Origin: a phage
Reading direction: 5' to 3' (one strand)
Sequence record: PZ445554.1
Length of the DNA: 64,000 nt
How positions within the stretch are numbered: position 1 is the stretch's first letter; every line of letters starts with the position of its first letter. Shown here piece after piece: positions 2,354 to 36,836 of the stretch. The notes under the pieces were generated by a model, which saw only the letters and a list, made by a program, of their open reading frames with translations, had not been told where the DNA came from and did no database searches. The position numbers and the translations under genes are program-made.

Positions 2354-3369
2354 TGTGTTGCCTCTACATATAGCTGATTTGCATATTGAATAAGTGCTTC
2401 ACGATCAGAATCAGTGATGTCTGGAATTGCATTAATATACTCTTCCATTAATGTCTGAAGCGATTGAACTTCAACTTCTTCACTGTCATCTGACTCGACA
2501 GAGTTATCAATCTTTGACACAACTCGTAATGAATGCACAACTTTTTCTAGTTCAGATTCGAATTTCGTCAGATTTTTGTCTACTTCAGTTACTATAACAC
2601 GTACTGATAGATTTGTAAAATCTTTATAGTCAATTTTTCCTTTAAATGGATAATGAATTCTACGATGCCAGGTAGTATTGTTTGGAATAAATTCCATTCG
2701 TTCTGTTTCTGTATCAAACATCCAGAACCCACGAGGGTCATTCTCGTCACCTGCTGTTAGTGTCCATGGTGTCCCAATATATCTGACGTTTGCAGCCTCA
2801 GAAATAGTATGGAAGTGACCAGACCACACTTCTTTATAAGTCTTAAGGAAATCAGGTTCAAGACCGTGAGATTTCATTCCTTTATAAAAATAAAATCCAT
2901 TCAGTTCCCAGTGACCAACACAAAAAGAAGCAGATGAAGTTTTGATGTGTTCAAGAATTTCACCAGTATTTTCTTCGCACATCCAAGGAATTAAATCAAT
3001 CAAACACCCGTCAAAATCTACTGTAGTAGGCTTATCATATACTTTAACATTAGGATATTTAGCCAAAAGCTCAGTAGAGGCATTTGGATGCATTACATTT
3101 TTGTAGTGGAGATCGTGATTTCCTACAATAGTATGTAATGTGATTCCAGCGTCATCAAGCATTTGAACTATTTCACGGGCAAACTCCATAGTTTTATGTG
3201 TGATTGCTTTTCGCACATCAAAAATATCACCATATTGAATCCATACAGTAATTCCATTTTTCTTAGAATATTCTATCGCTTGCTTAATTCCATCAATTTG
3301 AATACCGCGAATCCACTCATCATCAGCTTTAACGCCTAAATGCCAATCACCCAAGTTTAGTATTTTCAT
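2350..3369 (-). CDS. 47: recombination nuclease subunit gp47 (Mre11/SbcD-like phosphoesterase)
   Basis: 339 aa; N-terminal LGDWHLG and GNHD calcineurin-like phosphoesterase motifs; adjacent to gene 46 as in T4. Confidence 0.93.
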   Translation of the reverse strand: MKILNLGDWHLGVKADDEWIRGIQIDGIKQAIEYSKKNGITVWIQYGDIFDVRKAITHKTMEFAREIVQMLDDAGITLHTIVGNHDLHYKNVMHPNASTELLAKYPNVKVYDKPTTVDFDGCLIDLIPWMCEENTGEILEHIKTSSASFCVGHWELNGFYFYKGMKSHGLEPDFLKTYKEVWSGHFHTISEAANVRYIGTPWTLTAGDENDPRGFWMFDTETERMEFIPNNTTWHRRIHYPFKGKIDYKDFTNLSVRVIVTEVDKNLTKFESELEKVVHSLRVVSKIDNSVESDDSEEVEVQSLQTLMEEYINAIPDITDSDREALIQYANQLYVEATQ

Positions 3370-3970
3370 GGTGTCTTTTCCATCCTAATTTAGCTGCTTT
3401 TGAAACCAGTTCTTTAATTTTTCCTTTTGTCCATTCAGGACCAGGAGGTTCATGACATAACATTTGCTTAACTCCGTTATTATACCATTTTTTACCTTTA
3501 TTATGTGATGAAGCTTTAAATTTATTTGACCTTCCTTTTGCATAACCTTCTGGAATATAAGGCAAAAAGGCAGATTTTCCTGTTAATGGATCATGTGAAT
3601 GTATATTTCCTTTACAATTATGAGAACCATATAATGGATGATTTTGTCCTTTATTATCTCTTCCAAATGAACCTTTTGGAGCAGCATATGACATATTAAA
3701 GAATAATGGATTTTTAACTGCATCATGCAATCGTTGATAATATAACTCGCATTTAATAGCTTCTTCACGCGTATCAAATTCAGCTAAAATGCATGAATCA
3801 AATAAGTGAGGATTATCTGAAAGCTCTTTATTATAAATTTTCTTATACTTTTTAGATAAAACTGAACCATGATATCCAGCTAAATGCCTATCTAAAGACG
3901 TAGATCCAATATAAAAAGGAGGAAGTTTATCTCCACTATATATTGTTAAATAAGTTATATATTTTTTCAT
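3347..3970 (-). CDS. GIY-YIG family homing endonuclease (Seg-like)
   Basis: 207 aa; N-terminus YLTIYSGDKLPPFYIGST..R..H...ILAEFDTREEA..E fits GIY-(8-11)-YIG with conserved Arg/Glu; basic Gly/Lys-rich C-terminus typical of DNA-binding linker; overlaps gene 47 start by 23 nt. Confidence 0.7.
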   Translation of the reverse strand: MKKYITYLTIYSGDKLPPFYIGSTSLDRHLAGYHGSVLSKKYKKIYNKELSDNPHLFDSCILAEFDTREEAIKCELYYQRLHDAVKNPLFFNMSYAAPKGSFGRDNKGQNHPLYGSHNCKGNIHSHDPLTGKSAFLPYIPEGYAKGRSNKFKASSHNKGKKWYNNGVKQMLCHEPPGPEWTKGKIKELVSKAAKLGWKRHHENTKLG

Positions 3971-4107
3971 ATATCAAGAACCGTCATTGAAATGCAAAAT
4001 AAAATTATTGAAATAAATCCATCTGGAGTGCTAAAGAACCCAATCCAACATGCTCTAGTGAATAGATAAAATGCAAGAAAAAGTATCACATATCCAAGAA
4101 ATATCAT
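3967..4107 (-). CDS. putative small hydrophobic peptide (46 aa)
   Basis: Hand-translated MIFLGYVILFLAFYLFTRACWIGFF...; its TGA overlaps ATG of the GIY-YIG ORF (ATGA); below ORF-track size cut-off. Confidence 0.25.
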   Translation of the reverse strand: MIFLGYVILFLAFYLFTRACWIGFFSTPDGFISIILFCISMTVLDI

Positions 4108-4130
4108 TATATCAAACTCCGTATAAAGCT

Positions 4131-4148
4131 AAAGGGCCGAAGCCCTTT
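4131..4148 (-). terminator. rho-independent terminator after a-gt
   Basis: AAAGGGC-TTCG-GCCCTTT hairpin (minus strand) at the a-gt stop, followed by U-rich tract. Confidence 0.5.
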
Positions 4149-5349
4149 ATTTTGTAATAATGTCAAACTGTTCTTTAAAGCAGAAGCTTGAATCTTGATG
4201 CTGATACAAAAATTCATATGCTTTTTCTCGCTCACGGTCATAAAGAGCTCGGTCAGATGACAGTTCTTTAATACGTTCAAATGTTGATTCCATGTCATTT
4301 TCATCAAACCAAATGATACCGCTATCATGCGAGGTCAAAGGAGTATTATCAACACGGAATTTTAAATTTTCGCCAGTAGATTTCCAAAATACCGGAATTG
4401 TTCCACATGCACCAAGCTCGAGATGAGTATATTCTAAAGAACGTTGTAGATATTTTTTATCCAACTTACTCAACTGATAACCAAAACCGGATTTACTCAT
4501 GCGTTCAAGCATTTCGCTATTTACATAACGGTCAAGAATTTGCGTTGGCAAATTAGGAGCAATTTTAATTTGGTCTACTTGATGAAGACGATAATACTCG
4601 TATGGAATTCCTTTTTCTTTAATAGGAATGAACGCTGGAGAACGTTCCAGACCTTCCATAATAGTACTTAGTCCTGCAGGTTTAAGATGTTTTTCGTGAA
4701 AATCAAACATCTGATAAAAACCTTTCCATGTAGTCGTACGACCAATCCAACGATTGATATTCATGTTAATTTCAGAAACATCTTTCCAGTAGGTTGACCG
4801 AACCTTCGCAATATCCATAGGAGGCTGAAAGTTATATACTGTCGGCGCTTCTTCAATATCATCAAATAAAGAAACTGTTTCAGGATACCACTCTTTCATC
4901 AGAACTTTATTAAAATCACCATTATCAGAATGACTAAAAATAACATCAGCTCGACGAACAGTTTCTTCTAATCCCAAATTTCGGCGCAAAGAAAGAGAAG
5001 AGTGGTCATGTTGATAAACTACAACACGAACCGAAGGTTTAATGTTATCAATAATTTTTTTATAGTTATTAATAGTGTCTTCTTCAACTGAAGTAGCAGG
5101 AACTGAATTGATAATTAGAATATCACAATCATTTACCAGCTTAAGTGTTTTATCGTATTCTTTTGCCAATAAAACCGGAATTGAAAATGATTTATAATCA
5201 TGTGCACAGTTACGAGTAAATGATTTATCTTTAGCATAAACCAAAGTTACTTCATGACCATTTTTAATAAACCAATCACGTTGCTCAAGAGAAAATTTAG
5301 TTACACCACAACCTTCAAGACCCCGAGCCATAAAAATACATACTTTCAT
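4147..5349 (-). CDS. a-gt: DNA alpha-glucosyltransferase (hydroxymethylcytosine glucosylation)
   Basis: 400 aa; begins MKVCIFMARGLEGCGVTKFSLEQRDWFIKNGHEVTLVYAKDKSF, recognised as the T4 alpha-gt sequence; same length as T4 enzyme. Confidence 0.95.
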   Translation of the reverse strand: MKVCIFMARGLEGCGVTKFSLEQRDWFIKNGHEVTLVYAKDKSFTRNCAHDYKSFSIPVLLAKEYDKTLKLVNDCDILIINSVPATSVEEDTINNYKKIIDNIKPSVRVVVYQHDHSSLSLRRNLGLEETVRRADVIFSHSDNGDFNKVLMKEWYPETVSLFDDIEEAPTVYNFQPPMDIAKVRSTYWKDVSEINMNINRWIGRTTTWKGFYQMFDFHEKHLKPAGLSTIMEGLERSPAFIPIKEKGIPYEYYRLHQVDQIKIAPNLPTQILDRYVNSEMLERMSKSGFGYQLSKLDKKYLQRSLEYTHLELGACGTIPVFWKSTGENLKFRVDNTPLTSHDSGIIWFDENDMESTFERIKELSSDRALYDREREKAYEFLYQHQDSSFCFKEQFDIITK

Positions 5350-19267: not shown

Positions 19268-19795
19268 TTATGCGAGTACCGTCTTTAACCGTTCTTCAAA
19301 CTTCCGAAGAGTATTTTGGCGTTCAGCTCTTTGCTTTTTGTAAGTTTCAATACGCTCTGAAATGAGATTGTATCGTTCATTTACTGATTCTTTCATAAAA
19401 TCAGGAATTTCACGAGAAGCTTTAATCTCGTCAAATTTATCAATAACAGCTTGCTCTTCAGCAATTAAGTTATCATACATCAAAATATCTTTCTTGATGA
19501 ACTCAATATCTTCTTGAGTTACACGAGATAATTTAGATGCTTTATCCTTTTTGTACTGTTCGTTAGTATCACGAGACCAGTGTAATGTACGATTTTTATT
19601 CGTATTCTTGTAAATTTCTACAATACCAATCTCATCGATAATAACGATCCAATTCCAACGGGATTTGTAAATTTGTCCTCCATCAACCGTGATTTCACCT
19701 CCGATTGAGATGTCATTAAAGAACTTGCTTTGTGCTTCAGATTTAAATTTACCATCGTTGTAATTTACCAGGTTGAAAATATCTTTAGCGTTCAT
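19268..19795 (-). CDS. hypothetical protein
   Basis: 175 aa; GGAGGAAC RBS; directly downstream of early promoter. Confidence 0.55.
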   Translation of the reverse strand: MNAKDIFNLVNYNDGKFKSEAQSKFFNDISIGGEITVDGGQIYKSRWNWIVIIDEIGIVEIYKNTNKNRTLHWSRDTNEQYKKDKASKLSRVTQEDIEFIKKDILMYDNLIAEEQAVIDKFDEIKASREIPDFMKESVNERYNLISERIETYKKQRAERQNTLRKFEERLKTVLA

Positions 19796-32289: not shown

Positions 32290-32314
32290 TTTATCCCTCC
32301 AAGTAACTGTGAAT

Positions 32315-32344
32315 ATACTATCACAATTCTAGGAGAAAGTAAAC
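32315..32344 (-). promoter_or_regulatory. T4-type early promoter upstream of denV
   Basis: GTTTAC-N18-TAGTAT (minus), GGAGGGA RBS follows. Confidence 0.45.
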
Positions 32345-32348
32345 AACT

Positions 32349-32879
<531 letters not shown>

Positions 32880-33335
32880 TTAAAAGAGGTTGTTCATTAT
32901 TCGGTAAAGTGAAGGACCCATCACATATTGCCACTGAGTACGAGGAATAAGAGCAAAAGCATCCATCTCTGGAATCATAACGCCATCTTTATTTTCAAAA
33001 TAAGACTCACAATAGCAATTTCTGAACATCTCATGCTCTACTGGAATCGTATAATAAAATAACTGTAAGTCTTTATTACTAGAATATTTAAATACACCTA
33101 GGTCTTCTAGAAGGTCTGGATTATAATTGCTAAAACCAGTCTCTTCTAAGCATTCTCTTCGTGCTGCATCTAGTGCGCTTAAATCAGAATTTTCTACGCG
33201 GCCCTTTGGAATATCCCAACGATGTGCCATCATTCCAGGCTTACGAGAACCAGTAACCCGACCCATAAATAAATCTTTATCTTCTGTCATAAAGATAATA
33301 CCAGCTGATAATGTTTTCATTTTAATTTCCTGCAT
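32880..33335 (-). CDS. nudE: Nudix hydrolase
   Basis: 151 aa; Nudix box GRVENSDLSALDAARRECLEETG. Confidence 0.85.
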   Translation of the reverse strand: MQEIKMKTLSAGIIFMTEDKDLFMGRVTGSRKPGMMAHRWDIPKGRVENSDLSALDAARRECLEETGFSNYNPDLLEDLGVFKYSSNKDLQLFYYTIPVEHEMFRNCYCESYFENKDGVMIPEMDAFALIPRTQWQYVMGPSLYRIMNNLF

Positions 33336-33805
33336 TCAGTGATAAAGTTATTTAAATTTTGAGCATATTTCTTTTCATCAAAAATCTTTTGTTGTCTGCG
33401 TAACCGCCATGGCATTTCAATGAACACACACCATATTCCGGATAATATTGCTGCAGTAAAAATATTAACAAATATAGTACAAAGAGCCCAATCTCCTATT
33501 CTGTCCATTGGATTTTTTCCAAAGAAGTAAAATACGAATGATGACGCAGGAAGACTAATGATATACCACAGAAGCATATTCTTATCCGTAAACCATTCAG
33601 CGTTCGTTAACTTAGCACGACCGTTTTGAATACAAACGAATTTATCGTCTGTTACAGTAGATGGCTTAACTGCTTGATATCCCATTCTAAACTCCCTAAT
33701 CAACAAATTTTTCATATCTTCGGAACAGCCATTCCAATCAACTCTATCAACTGGAATGCCATCATCTCCATCATCTAAATCATACCAGCGAGTTTTTAAA
33801 ATCAT
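33317..33805 (-). CDS. membrane protein, junction-repeat family member
   Basis: 162 aa; two hydrophobic segments; C-terminus ...FITECRKLK. Confidence 0.55.
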   Translation of the reverse strand: MILKTRWYDLDDGDDGIPVDRVDWNGCSEDMKNLLIREFRMGYQAVKPSTVTDDKFVCIQNGRAKLTNAEWFTDKNMLLWYIISLPASSFVFYFFGKNPMDRIGDWALCTIFVNIFTAAILSGIWCVFIEMPWRLRRQQKIFDEKKYAQNLNNFITECRKLK

Positions 33806-34176
33806 TTAATTTTCCTGCAATCACTCACAAACTCTTCCATTGATTCTTTTTCAATATAAGACATGTAGTTATTATATTCTTTTAATTGTATTTTGTAATC
33901 TTTTTTTCTTTGCCAATTTATTTTAAAATTATCATAATGAAAATATAACATGGTACCAAAGAATGAAAATAATGAAATCGCTATAGTATAATGAAGTTCA
34001 CTCCAAACTTCTATTATATCTATTATACCGCTGACGTTACTACGGATGTTTAAAATAAAACAGTCAATTAACAATCCAATAAGACTACCTGCAAGAGCTG
34101 CAAATGCTGATACGGCAAGAATTAATAGTGCCTCTGGAAACGAATATTTAACTTTATTTAGTTTTGGCTTTTGCAT
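33802..34176 (-). CDS. membrane protein, junction-repeat family member
   Basis: 124 aa; hydrophobic segments; C-terminus ...EFVSDCRKIK. Confidence 0.55.
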   Translation of the reverse strand: MQKPKLNKVKYSFPEALLILAVSAFAALAGSLIGLLIDCFILNIRSNVSGIIDIIEVWSELHYTIAISLFSFFGTMLYFHYDNFKINWQRKKDYKIQLKEYNNYMSYIEKESMEEFVSDCRKIK

Positions 34177-34571
34177 CGTGATTCCTTAACAAATTTCATA
34201 ATTTCATCAAATTCATACGCAGCAAGTTTAAGCTGATGTTCCTTTTTAATCTTTTTACACTGAGCTTTCCATTCGCGTACGCGTTTACGATAATGTCTTC
34301 CTTGATACCAGTATCCTACCCAATTTACAGGTACTAATAAAAATGGAACTACTAATGGAAGAATTAATACTAACAGAAATACTGCGTCTGATTCAATATC
34401 AGTAGTAACATCTATAACTATTCCAATAATCATTAGGATTATAAATGATACAGCTGTCACAGGACCTACTAATACATCAGTAGGAATTAGCTGGCGCTTT
34501 AATTCATACTTCAACGGTTTACTTGGAAGGTATAGTGATGGTTTTGACATATTCTCTACATTCCTTAACAA
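34158..34571 (-). CDS. membrane protein, junction-repeat family member
   Basis: 137 aa; hydrophobic segments; C-terminus ...KFVKESRCKSQN. Confidence 0.55.
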   Translation of the reverse strand: MLRNVENMSKPSLYLPSKPLKYELKRQLIPTDVLVGPVTAVSFIILMIIGIVIDVTTDIESDAVFLLVLILPLVVPFLLVPVNWVGYWYQGRHYRKRVREWKAQCKKIKKEHQLKLAAYEFDEIMKFVKESRCKSQN

Positions 34572-35127
34572 ATTTTTCTAATAATAAATCGCTTTCAAAA
34601 TTGGGATTTTCTACGAATTTATCAAAAAGATCATCAACAATAGTTAAGATATTCTTTTTACTAAGAATACGTTTATTTTCATGCTTCGTTTCAGAATCAA
34701 CTATAAGAGTAAAGAAATATTTCTTTCCCTGAAATTTTACCGTAGTATCAATATAAAATAAATTTGACTTTTGTAAATTACGTTTAAACCATGCGTCGCT
34801 TAAACTATAAACACCGAGATAATCAAAATCGTCGTTTAAATAACATACGGTCCATTCAGGAGAAATGAAATCAGTAAATTCAACATCAAAATCGCATGTC
34901 AATGAATAAATTGATTCAATACTGTTAATAAGTATTCCAGGACGTATTAAAGACTTTTTACCTCTGGAAAATCTTCCAGAAAGACTTTCATCAGTTTCAT
35001 ATGAAGAACCCCAATAATAATTACGTCCTTCTGCCATACGTTTAAGAGCATTTAGCAATTGGTCTGGAACATCAACCTGTCTTTGGAACTCTTCAAACAT
35101 TGAATTGAAATCACTTTGCATTTTCAT
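34519..35127 (-). CDS. hypothetical protein sharing C-terminal KFVKECR motif
   Basis: 202 aa, soluble; C-terminus ...EKFVKECREYVK. Confidence 0.55.
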   Translation of the reverse strand: MKMQSDFNSMFEEFQRQVDVPDQLLNALKRMAEGRNYYWGSSYETDESLSGRFSRGKKSLIRPGILINSIESIYSLTCDFDVEFTDFISPEWTVCYLNDDFDYLGVYSLSDAWFKRNLQKSNLFYIDTTVKFQGKKYFFTLIVDSETKHENKRILSKKNILTIVDDLFDKFVENPNFESDLLLEKFVKECREYVKTITIPSK

Positions 35128-35148
35128 TCCTATTTACTCCAAGTAATA

Positions 35149-35162
35149 GGGGCCGAAGCCCC
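35149..35162 (-). terminator. possible rho-independent terminator
   Basis: GGGGC-TTCG-GCCCC hairpin after stop at 35169; weak U-tract. Confidence 0.35.
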
Positions 35163-35168
35163 TTATCA

Positions 35169-35762
35169 TTATTTCAGAGAATTAATATATTCCTGAACAT
35201 CGGCAGAGGTAGTTTCAACCCCAGAAATATTACCATTAAAGGTTTCAACTCGAGCAAGAGTATCTTCAATATCAACCTTAGTCAGTGCTGCAATTTCAAC
35301 TACATCATCAGCAGTACTAATTCCAAGTGCATTCGCTGCACGAGTTTCACGGATATATTCCAATTTAACTGCAAGTTCTTGGCGAGCATCATCTAACTCA
35401 ACTACTTTCTTGGCGATTTCAATTCGCATTTCAGCATACCCATCAGCTTTAGTAGTCAACTGCTCAGCTGTTCGACGATATAGCAAGCCGAGTTTAGCAT
35501 GCATTGTTACATCTTGACCTTCGGAAAGAAGCTTGCGAATTTCACGCTCTTTTGATTCAGCCTGTTTATTCTTTTCAACAATAAGTTCACGAATACGCTT
35601 TTCTTCATTAATAGATTTAACAGAAGCAGTTTTTAGATCTTTAATCTTATCAAGTAGTTTTGCTGCTGCAGCAGTATACTGTTCTTCAACAGATAGATTT
35701 TTAGCCATAGCAGAACCAAGTTTAGTGCGAATAAACTCAACAATTTTCTTCAGTGTGTTCAT
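35169..35762 (-). CDS. coiled-coil protein
   Basis: 197 aa; predominantly heptad/charged helical sequence. Confidence 0.55.
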
Positions 35763-35806
35763 AGTATTTCCTTAGGTTAATTAAGATTTAAAATCCATGA
35801 GAGTAT

Positions 35807-35983
35807 TATACTCCGGATAGTTTGTAAACTATTTCAACATCGCCTTTTGCTGCTTTATAACCTTCAGCCCAAGATACAACCGAGTTTTTATCTGAAGATT
35901 CAAATTCTGGCATTGGGCTTTCGCCAATGTTCACGCAGTATGTTTCTTCATTTTCGTCAAACCAAATAATTAAAGTAGTCATT
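35807..35983 (-). CDS. putative small acidic protein (58 aa)
   Basis: Hand-translated MTTLIIWFDENEETYCVNIGESPMPEF...; ACGGAGAAATAA RBS; below ORF-track cut-off. Confidence 0.3.
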
Positions 35984-36051
35984 TATTTCTCCGTTTTCTG
36001 TATTTGTTTTGATAAGTCTATAATAACACCGTCCTTGGCGTTTGTACACAA

Positions 36052-36327
36052 TTATTTCATATTATTGAAATATTCTTCTGCAATTTCGTCGTTATCATGG
36101 TAAACTTTAGAAGACAGTTTAACATAACCTTCAGCAGTGAACATGTTAATCACAACCTTTACAGTATACCACTGACCGTCTTCATTACCCATTACTGCAT
36201 AAGTTTCAAACATCGGATGGTCAGGACCGATAACTTTAATATCATTCACCGTACGACCAAAATCTTCTGAAACACATTTCATAAAGAAGTTGAACAGTTC
36301 ACCGTAATTATCCATTTCATTCTCCAA
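36052..36327 (-). CDS. hypothetical protein
   Basis: 91-aa ORF, GGAGAATGAA RBS, downstream of early promoter. Confidence 0.5.
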   Translation of the reverse strand: MENEMDNYGELFNFFMKCVSEDFGRTVNDIKVIGPDHPMFETYAVMGNEDGQWYTVKVVINMFTAEGYVKLSSKVYHDNDEIAEEYFNNMK

Positions 36328-36358
36328 GTTGTTTTCTGTATCAGCAGTTGATAGTTGT

Positions 36359-36388
36359 ATAGTACCATGGAAGAACAGGGATGTAAAC
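36359..36388 (-). promoter_or_regulatory. T4-type early promoter
   Basis: GTTTAC-N18-TACTAT with conserved ACAACTATCAACTG leader and A/T-rich upstream element. Confidence 0.5.
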
Positions 36389-36496
36389 AGTTTTGTGAAA
36401 AAATTTTTAAAAAGTTTTAGGGAATTCTAGGGTCAGGAGGGGCAATTAAAAGGTAGGATAATATATTATAAAGGGTATAAACTAAATGATGCCTAG

Positions 36497-36548
36497 AGAG
36501 GCCCGAAAAGGCCTAGATACCAAAAAGCCCCAACCTTTCGGTCGGGGC
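36497..36548 (-). terminator. tandem rho-independent terminators ending the tRNA/stable-RNA operon
   Basis: GCCCCGACC-GAAA-GGTTGGGGC followed by TTTTTG (36521-36548) and AGGCC-TTTTCG-GGCCT (36499-36514) on minus strand. Confidence 0.6.
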
Positions 36549-36836
36549 TAAGCCTTGCGGCAACCTTGTCGGGGTTCCACCTGCTAAGGCAAGTGTTTGT
36601 ACGAAACGCCGGGACTTGAACCCGGTTATTAAGTAGTTGACGCTACTCAATATTTTTAAAAGGCCATATCTCGACCATATCCGAACGTTCCGTCAAAAAC
36701 GCTACTCGGCTTACGGCAAAGATATTTCCTCGAATCGATAATTCGGTGCGCCGTTTCTGCTGTGATGTAAGAGGGCATCAATAAACGCAAAGATTATTAA
36801 CGCAATTCCTTACTCAGGGAACATCAGTCCGACGAC
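36549..36836 (-). ncRNA. probable small stable RNA(s) downstream of tRNA-Arg
   Basis: No ORF; GC-richer than surroundings; contains tRNA T-arm-like CCGGGTTCAAGTCCCGG; by position analogous to T4 stable RNA species; boundaries not defined. Confidence 0.3.

Follow-up and report, generated by a model that had tools for sequence, protein, structure and literature searches.

The phage DNA analyzed here, a stretch of 64,000 nucleotides referred to as the window (sequence record PZ445554.1), is a segment of a Tequatrovirus genome. The genes of the region considered, all on the minus strand, are transcribed in the order e.6, e.5, e.4, e.3, e.2, nudE, and lysozyme e. Four consecutive genes of this series, e.5 to e.2, encode proteins ending in a similar short peptide at the junction with the next gene (Table 1). 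A megablast search with positions 33000-35800 matched 635 phage records, the best being vB_EcoM_C2-3 at 97% identity, and T2, T4, T6, and RB phages were among the matches at 91-94%. The order from e.6 to e is that of T4, Ac3, and T2 (the last without e.2), and e.5 to e.2 lie between e.6 and nudE/e in RB69 as well. Gene names were taken from the T4, T2, and Ac3 annotations and confirmed by matches to PHROG families, as hmmscan identified the four open reading frames (ORFs) as full-length family members (quoted E-value range, 3e-76 to 4e-109). By tblastn, copies of e.2 to e.5 that are 78-100% identical occur in hundreds of Tequatrovirus records. Precomputed Pfam tags were PF26896 on e.2-tail fragments, PF26873 on an e.4 fragment, and PF26876 on e.5.

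Table 1. Genes, tail motifs, and repeats of the e.6-to-e region (window positions)
Feature	Position	Strand	Remarks
e.5, soluble, 202 aa	34519-35127	-	First in overlapping block; PHROG 2607, E 3.9e-109, full length; tail ..LLLEKFVKECREYVKTITIPSK / ..EKFVKECREYVKTITIPSK
e.4, 130 aa, predicted two-segment membrane hairpin	34158-34550	-	Starts MSKPS; PHROG 2604, E 3.8e-70; variant tail ..IMKFVKESRCKSQN / ..MKFVKESRCKSQN
e.3, 124 aa, predicted two-segment membrane hairpin	33802-34176	-	PHROG 2330, E 3.1e-61; tail ..EEFVSDCRKIK, ..SMEEFVSDCRKIK
e.2, 162 aa, acidic N-terminal domain, then predicted two-segment membrane hairpin	33317-33805	-	PHROG 2203, E 3e-76, residues 1-160; tail ..NNFITECRKLK, ..NLNNFITECRKLK
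Tail motif of e.5, LEKFVKECR	34555-34581	-	K-E codons AAGGAA at -16 to -11 from e.4 ATG
Tail motif of e.4, IMKFVKESR	34176-34202	-	AAGGAA at -11 to -6 from e.3 ATG, which lies inside the following R-C codons (cgATGc)
Tail motif of e.3, MEEFVSDCR	33814-33840	-	R-K codons AGGAAA at -13 to -8 are the Shine-Dalgarno of e.2
Tail motif of e.2, LNNFITECR	33329-33355	-	R-K codons AGGAAA at -13 to -8 are the Shine-Dalgarno of nudE
16-nt exact repeat, first copy (AAATTTGTTAAGGAAT), e.5/e.4 junction	34560-34575	-	Family D8; encodes KFVKE plus one base; ATTCCTTAACAAATTT on the plus strand
16-nt exact repeat, second copy, e.4/e.3 junction	34181-34196	-	Family D8
30-nt imperfect repeat (80% identical), e.3/e.2 copy	33802-33831	-	Families D1, D2; TGCAGGAAA core; left breakpoint of T2-type e.2 deletion
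30-nt imperfect repeat, e.2/nudE copy	33317-33346	-	Families D1, D2; TGCAGGAAA core; right breakpoint of T2-type e.2 deletion
e.6	35169-35762	-	Followed by the G+C-rich hairpin
Hairpin GGGGCTTCGGCCCC, perfect, G+C-rich	35148-35163	-	Between e.6 and e.5; upstream edge of gap-free e.5-nudE block
nudE (e.1), Nudix hydrolase gene	32880-33320	-	Downstream end of block; ATG at 33320 overlaps e.2 stop (ATGA); annotated nudE in T2, Ac3, T4
Lysozyme e	32349-32843	-	Downstream of nudE

There are zero intergenic bases from e.5 through nudE. The e.5/e.4 overlap measures 32 nt (34519-34550) and the e.4/e.3 overlap 19 nt (34158-34176), and the last two gene pairs share 4-nt ATGA stop/start overlaps at 33802-33805 (e.3/e.2) and 33317-33320 (e.2/nudE). 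No promoter or terminator signal stands out inside this block; promoter-like sites number 19 in positions 32300-36600, where 17.3 would be expected, with none at the four junctions, and a search for terminator-like sites at these junctions found none. The hairpin that borders the block upstream is not followed by a T-run on the coding (minus) strand and could be a weak terminator or an RNA-stabilizing or processing hairpin. From its sequence, the e.5-to-nudE block is probably read as a single translationally coupled unit.

The first protein of the block, e.5, has no hydrophobic segment by hydropathy. In its AlphaFold2 model (mean predicted local distance difference test score [pLDDT], 63), residues 181-196, which include the tail motif, form a terminal helix. 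Among 1.84 billion representative proteins we found no remote homologues of e.5, the sole weak extra match being a repeat protein, and a search for a fold match returned none. For e.4, the start was placed at the ATG at 34550 instead of the upstream TTG given by the ORF listing, and its N terminus, MSKP.LY.P.KP, is kept in Mosigvirus and corresponds to LYLPGKP in Dhakavirus. Hydropathy places transmembrane segments at residues 28-46 and 57-75 of e.4, flanked by K/R-rich stretches, and at residues 77-95 and 103-121 of e.2. All three of e.2, e.3, and e.4 have two hydrophobic segments, K/R-rich N- and C-terminal flanks, and K/R-poor connecting loops. Because of this charge distribution, hydropathy and the positive-inside rule together indicate that these proteins should be N-in/C-in hairpins with cytoplasmic tails. 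A single-sequence AlphaFold2 model of e.3 (pLDDT 75) contains a helix from residue 13 to 45 and then an unbroken helix from residue 48 to 122 that runs from the second membrane segment into the tail of this 124-residue protein. In tblastn searches, e.5 and e.4 were each present in 644 records, e.3 in 608, and e.2 in 534; since fewer records hold the latter two, e.2 and e.3 are dispensable members of the series.

When the entire window was translated in six frames, the strict pattern F[VI].[ED]CR was matched three times, namely, in the tails of e.2, e.3, and e.5, each at most 11 residues from the stop codon. First-order Markov simulations predict 0.13 occurrences, and at least three were reached in 0.3% of the simulations. 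The e.4 protein instead has a variant, FVKESRC. In RB69, of which the first 85 kb were covered, the strict motif is likewise restricted to tails, namely, those of e.5, e.3, ORF133c (a further small two-segment membrane protein), and e.2. An earlier note on this DNA had described the array as three membrane proteins and one soluble protein that share a C-terminal tail encoded across the start of the next gene. ORFs, hydropathy, and the tail alignment agree with this description in each respect, with the tail codons overlapping or abutting the next start.

Aligned on the Phe (position 0), the motif comprises 9-15 residues with the form hydrophobic(-3)-x-x-F(0)-[IV](+1)-x-[ED](+3)-C(+4)-[RK](+5). 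Position -3 is L, I, M, V, or A, position 0 is F, position +1 is I or V, position +3 is E or D, and position +5 is R or K. Position +4 is C, except in e.4, where it is S, I, or V. Positions -3, 0, +1, and +4 fall on one face of an alpha-helix, and the motif is predicted to form the last turns of such a helix in the models. Because I or V replaces the Cys in e.4 orthologues, the sequences suggest that the +4 Cys is a packing residue of the hydrophobic face rather than a thiol or metal ligand.

When the tails were compared with those of orthologues from RB69 and other Mosigvirus, from the Dhakavirus phages JS98, MX01, and vB_EcoM_005, and from IMG/VR contigs, the peptide proved to be held at the amino acid level in Tequatrovirus, Mosigvirus, and Dhakavirus. 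The e.2 tail reads FITECRKLK in the window, FITECRNLR in RB69, and FIEECRK in JS98 and MX01, and the e.3 tail reads FVSDCRKIK in the window, FIKECRK in RB69, and FIKECKS in Dhakavirus. For e.5, the sequences in Tequatrovirus, Mosigvirus, and Dhakavirus are FVKECREYVK.., FIMECREYVK.., and FI[AK]ECREYAK.., respectively; for e.4, the tails across the three genera are FVKESRC, FVKEIRC, and FIKEVRN. RB69 ORF133c ends in FIKECRGK. The Dhakavirus orthologues of e.3 and e.4 (BLASTP E values, 5e-11 and 4e-16) keep FIKECK and FIKEVR. Between e.2 and its JS98 counterpart, 7 of 9 tail residues match, compared with 31% of residues elsewhere; for e.5 and its Dhakavirus counterpart, the figures are 5 of 9 and 15%.

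The codons of the motif vary, with AGG, AGA, CGA, CGT, or CGC for Arg, TGC or TGT for Cys, and TTT or TTC for Phe. These same codons double as the Shine-Dalgarno sequence of the next, overlapping cistron, and the part of the motif used in this way differs from gene to gene. In RB69 e.3, JS98 e.2, e.4, and e.5, the Shine-Dalgarno is drawn from the x-E codons (AAGGAA or GAGGAA), as is the case when the tail stops right after CRK; when two further residues follow, as in e.2 and e.3 of the window, it comes from the R-K codons (AGGAAA), and in ORF133c from the R-G codons (cGA GGA). Since the peptide remains constant while its codons change and the ribosome-binding site shifts within the motif, the constraint acts at the protein level. 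The earlier note had left room for the junction similarity to reflect ribosome-binding-site constraints alone; it exceeds what these would produce, given a peptide kept through synonymous changes across three genera.

One apparent source of evidence for purifying selection had to be set aside. In Ac3 (OK040907.1; L002, 2659-3051), nearly all differences in e.4 from window positions 34158-34550 are synonymous. They lead to the E. coli-preferred codons CTG, CCG, CGT, and AGC and extend exactly from ATG to stop. The recoding turns the e.3 start ATG into CTG and changes the e.5 tail in the overlap, annotated in the record as a feature other than a coding sequence (CDS). This ORF looks like a synthetic codon-optimized copy, either acquired by the phage through recombination or introduced into the assembly.

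Searches for the tail in other proteins returned the same families and, in one case, short chance ORFs. A profile of 12 tails, run against a set of 5.8 billion proteins, retrieved only fragments of them. In IMG/VR, 28 loci matched a degenerate nucleotide pattern that encodes F[IV]xECRK* and continues with ATGA, and about 18 chance matches had been expected; by our own count, 12 of the 28 were e.2 or e.3 of Dhakavirus or Mosigvirus, and the others were short chance ORFs. An 83-residue predicted protein from P0006, a 524-bp ENA contig, has the last ~20 residues of e.2 (..FDEKKYTQNLNNFITECRKLK) fused to N-terminal sequence unrelated to e.2 and is probably a chimeric assembly.

At the DNA level, the four junctions form two pairs. 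Local-alignment scores were judged against 105 other start regions of the window, and the within-pair scores were 32 for e.5/e.4 versus e.4/e.3 and 31 for e.3/e.2 versus e.2/nudE (p about 0.002), with all four cross-pairs at chance (p 0.09-0.87). Thus, of the proposal that an element of ~20 nt is reiterated along the whole array, the part that stands is the 16-nt exact repeat at two junctions, which lies within about 2 nt of the positions first given for it (34180 and 34563); the other two junctions carry a different sequence. The identity of 16/16 is in itself unremarkable given the shared KFVKE and AAGGAA (p about 0.04-0.1 in a codon-usage estimate), and the corresponding e.5/e.4 and e.4/e.3 junctions of RB69 are just 11/16 identical by our own count.

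Three further candidate features of the junctions did not hold up. The similarity between e.3/e.2 and e.2/nudE can be extended downstream (GCTGGTAT), where it lies in different reading frames and where the e.2 N terminus reads IHWSNMD in RB69 versus TRWYDLD in the window; it is probably due to chance. An RNA element was sought in 81-nt folds of the four junctions, which were no stabler than shuffled sequences (z +0.55, -0.34, +0.04, and +0.70). As to a RegA operator, the 16-mer fits AAAAUUGUUAUGUAA, the RegA consensus from systematic evolution of ligands by exponential enrichment, at 12/15 positions, and such matches number 10 in the window versus 13.4 expected by chance.

Some phages lack one of the genes. 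In T2, nudE directly follows e.3, and the junction between them corresponds to the e.3 side up to TGCAGGAAA and to the e.2/nudE side beyond it, producing the hybrid tail ..FVSDCRKLK. A 42-nt probe designed to seed only on this T2-type hybrid found 43 records, including T2, PP01, UFV-AREG1, and Ozark. In Mosigvirus and Dhakavirus, e.2 lies just upstream of nudE, separated from it only by ORF130c and orf118, respectively. Because these genera also place e.2 near nudE, the T2 state is most simply read as a deletion of the 485-bp e.2 cassette. The T2-type hybrid junction, without e.2, is also carried by LR597660.1 (T4_ev151) and LR597657.1 (T4_ev240), two records named as T4 derivatives, which points either to recombination in their history or to the deletion having arisen there independently. 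In the T4 reference itself (AF158101; L004, 3734-4207), e.2 is annotated as 102 aa, with the tail-coding remainder (..FDEKKYAQNLNNFITECRKLK) downstream in another frame; the e.2 of laboratory T4 therefore appears to be frameshifted and to have lost its tail, in contrast to the 162-aa form of the window and most relatives.

Comparable events are found at other junctions. The Dhakavirus-type contig L017 has the gene order e.5', e.4', e.3', and vB_EcoM_005 (L029) lacks e.4'; the junction of the latter combines the e.5'/e.4' and e.4'/e.3' junctions seen in L017 into a chimera, with a crossover in AARGRGGTTC and the hybrid tail ..ECREYAKEVRNV. The Mosigvirus phage SQ17 lacks ORF130c and has e.2 joined to nudE at the microhomology gATGAGTA; this phage (L045, 5962-6815) is also without the whole e.8-to-e.3 stretch, and its e.2 is N-terminally truncated. 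In FL31 (L044, 1180-1330), most of e.3 was lost through an internal deletion with retention of its tail and the junction, and FL31 and the LF82-series phages alike have lost ~240 nt from the interior of e.3, without damage to the tail or to the junction with the next gene. Junction similarity of 10-30 nt has thus served as microhomology for precise, in-frame cassette loss, and each cassette loss leaves a chimeric tail together with an intact downstream start.

Beyond the tail, the families show little sign of kinship. In BLASTP comparisons between them, only the last 9-16 residues align, and hhalign matches obtained with the tail are limited to the last 10-18 residues, except for a weak 58-residue alignment of e.3 with e.4 (probability 52%). 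When the tail was removed, hhalign assigned none of the ten pairs among e.2, e.3, e.4, e.5, and RB69 ORF133c a probability above 1.5%. Extra gene copies were not seen by tblastn for e.2, e.4, and e.5, which each match one place per record; e.3 matches 609 places in 608 records, and this one extra match was not looked into. As far as these comparisons reach, the four families are not detectably paralogues apart from the tail, and a very old common ancestry of the membrane members is possible. The expansion by unequal recombination proposed in the earlier note is at odds with these data, given that there is no homology without the tail, no added copy except perhaps the one e.3 match, and no documented junction event other than deletion. 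What is borne out is the role of the repeats as recombination substrates, as natural junction-to-junction deletions exist and their direction is loss.

Considering these data as a whole, the best explanation, to which we assign a probability of about 0.55, is that the tail is a cytoplasmic helix-end motif common to co-expressed, translationally coupled proteins, and that the repeats are a by-product enabling cassette loss. In this scenario, the conserved hydrophobic stripe formed by positions -3, 0, +1, and +4 would constitute a common docking or assembly surface, via which the co-expressed proteins may bind one another or one shared partner. We would go further only tentatively, to a true docking motif, wherein the tails of e.2 to e.5 (and of ORF133c in Mosigvirus) bundle together or all attach to the same host or phage factor on the cytoplasmic side of the membrane. 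If docking were true, the array would encode one modular membrane complex, the subunits of which could be added or dropped by junction recombination, leaving the coupled stoichiometric translation of the rest undisturbed.

Several aspects of the data speak against a helix-end motif in this sense. The Cys is not invariant, since +4 of e.4 is S, I, or V, and in Tequatrovirus and Mosigvirus the e.4 tail has a Cys two residues further on. The position of the motif follows the downstream start and not the C terminus of its own protein. Its last codon ends at a point ranging from 10 nt before the next ATG to 1 nt inside it, and the number of residues that follow the motif in the tail proteins varies from 1 to 13. 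Anchoring of this kind would also agree with a contribution of the tail to translation initiation or with a copy-and-paste origin of entire junctions. In addition, the predicted topology draws only on hydropathy and the positive-inside rule, the model of e.5 is of low confidence, and the confinement of all families to three coliphage genera limits the comparative depth.

A role of the junctions at the level of nucleotides only, with the repeat as the Shine-Dalgarno, spacer, and ATG that make up the initiation region of the next cistron and the peptide as a passive read-out of AAGGAA or AGGAAA, would account for the (A/G)AGGAA that each tail has 6-16 nt before the next ATG, for the placement of the motif relative to the downstream start instead of the upstream stop, and for the FL31 deletion, which removed the body of e.3 and retained its tail and junction. 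However, the F and [IV] positions lie outside any Shine-Dalgarno, third codon positions vary and Arg switches between AGR and CGN, and the Shine-Dalgarno is taken from different motif codons in different genes with the peptide unchanged. Moreover, the DNA of cross-pairs is similar only at chance level despite alike peptides, RNA folding reveals no structure at these sites (z -0.34 to +0.70), and the likeness of the junctions to RegA sites is at chance. The observed codon pattern already refutes this explanation, which we consider very unlikely. If, instead, the junctions persisted as adaptors for recombination, because cassettes can be swapped there without breaking downstream expression, in the manner of the intergenic PeSLs discussed below, the peptide itself could be functionless. 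Consistent with this are the three independent precise cassette losses with chimeric junctions, the Dhakavirus e.5 counterpart that shares little beyond the tail with e.5, and a neighboring array of Mosigvirus and Dhakavirus with a tail of its own, G[WF]V.SS..C* followed by TAAGGAA, for which LH01 has different alleles with the same tail. Recombination, though, needs DNA identity, and it is the peptide, not the DNA, that is kept between genera and between non-paired junctions; the microhomologies used are short (8-10 nt) and ordinary for phage deletions, and the documented events at these junctions include no insertion or swap. Its chances appear slimmer still.

Descent from a common ancestor, with e.2, e.3, e.4, and ORF133c as ancient tandem paralogues that arose from one two-segment membrane gene by unequal crossing-over and with the e.5 tail acquired via partial duplication, seems to us unlikely, though less so than either of the preceding accounts. 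The shared architecture, in which two hydrophobic segments precede a basic stretch, then a ~30-45-residue helix, and then the tail, would follow from it, as would the M-x-K-P-x-L with which both e.3 and e.4 begin, their weak 58-residue hhalign match (52%), and the significant similarity within junction pairs. Against these stand the absence of any family pair above 2% probability once the tail is removed and the presence of the same tail on a soluble protein. Duplicated copies were not seen in the 534-644 records searched, the one extra e.3 match aside, and selection would still be needed to explain the survival of the tail alone. Finally, the peptide might act while still nascent, in the ribosome exit tunnel at the overlap, modulating termination and re-initiation. 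The sole support for this is positional, namely, that the end of a motif conserved in amino acids is never more than about 10 nt away from the next start; in e.5 and e.4, however, the ribosome goes on for 5-13 codons past the motif, which moreover resembles an ordinary amphipathic helix end, and we know of no T4 precedent for regulation of this sort. We regard it as barely credible.

T-even phages carry dozens of small accessory genes in their hyperplastic regions. A peptide motif present in five otherwise unrelated families of one block offers a concrete handle on such genes, since it predicts that the families act jointly or have one common target. It also means that a stretch of ~25 nt serves three roles, as a protein motif, as the ribosome-binding site of the next cistron, and as microhomology for clean cassette loss. 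The genes are non-essential and occur in three coliphage genera only, which makes the motif a useful lead for specialists rather than a surprise.

Two other sets of repeats were observed in the course of this work. Just downstream of e.3, Mosigvirus and Dhakavirus have a second tandem array of 3-5 small genes (L003 [RB69], 3357-4152; L043, 1558-2352; L046, 1558-2295; L029, 3681-4923), each of which ends in G-[WF]-[VIW]-x-S-S-x-x-C and a stop, after which come TAAGGAA and the ATG of the following gene. Such genes are absent from the window, and LH01 has different alleles with the same tail. Within the window, the minus-strand starts at 19795, 21228, and 36315 have ~20-25 nt of upstream sequence in common (GGTACTATACAACTATCAAC..), which is probably a repeated early promoter or leader.

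With respect to known systems, the window genes are the known T4 genes e.2, e.3, e.4, and e.5, with no difference at the gene level, and in a full-text literature search on these genes and on the motif we did not find a description of a C-terminal motif common to the four families and ORF133c. Translationally coupled operons, in which ATGA overlaps and a Shine-Dalgarno inside the upstream ORF link successive cistrons, are a general feature of bacteria and phages. The e.5-to-nudE block resembles them in the ATGA at e.3/e.2 and e.2/nudE and in the AGGAA-type Shine-Dalgarno located 6-16 nt upstream in the preceding ORF; unlike in ordinary coupling, its upstream proteins have a common peptide, and its overlaps of 19 and 32 nt are longer than usual.

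A closer parallel at the protein level is the capsid-targeting sequence of T-even internal proteins. These otherwise unrelated, polymorphic proteins share an N-terminal sequence, MKTYQEFIAE.., that targets them to the prohead and is then cleaved. In the window, the ORFs at minus-strand starts 39976, 39654, and 31863 begin with MKT[FY][KQ]EF.., the N-terminal leader of internal proteins, and their start regions score 47-50 against one another. Both the leader and the e-region tail are short terminal peptides that are conserved at the protein level on non-homologous neighbors in a variable region, and in both the conserved coding end gives rise to DNA similarity at gene borders. In contrast to the capsid-targeting sequence, which is N-terminal and of known function, the e-region motif is C-terminal, is found on membrane as well as cytoplasmic proteins, and overlaps the initiation region of the next gene.

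The promoter-early stem-loops (PeSLs) are repeated regulatory cassettes that, in the hyperplastic regions of T4-type phages, mediate modular shuffling (Arbiol et al. 2010, PMC2839356; Comeau et al. 2014, PMC4122927). They are intergenic elements of about 100 bp that combine a sigma-70-type promoter with a stem-loop terminator (PMC2839356). Like PeSLs, the e-region junctions are short conserved sequences that recur in a hyperplastic region where dispensable ORFs begin and end, and recombination of two copies removes the flanked ORF and leaves one chimeric copy with downstream expression intact. Unlike PeSLs, they are intragenic, lying in overlapping coding sequence, and only 10-30 nt in length. 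Neither a PeSL-type promoter nor a terminator is present at the junctions, which also lack a stable RNA fold, and what they conserve is a peptide together with a Shine-Dalgarno, so that the continuity maintained is translational, not transcriptional. With the array described here, the concept of modular shuffling through junctions, developed for PeSLs as intergenic elements of transcription, is extended to elements that lie within genes and serve translation.

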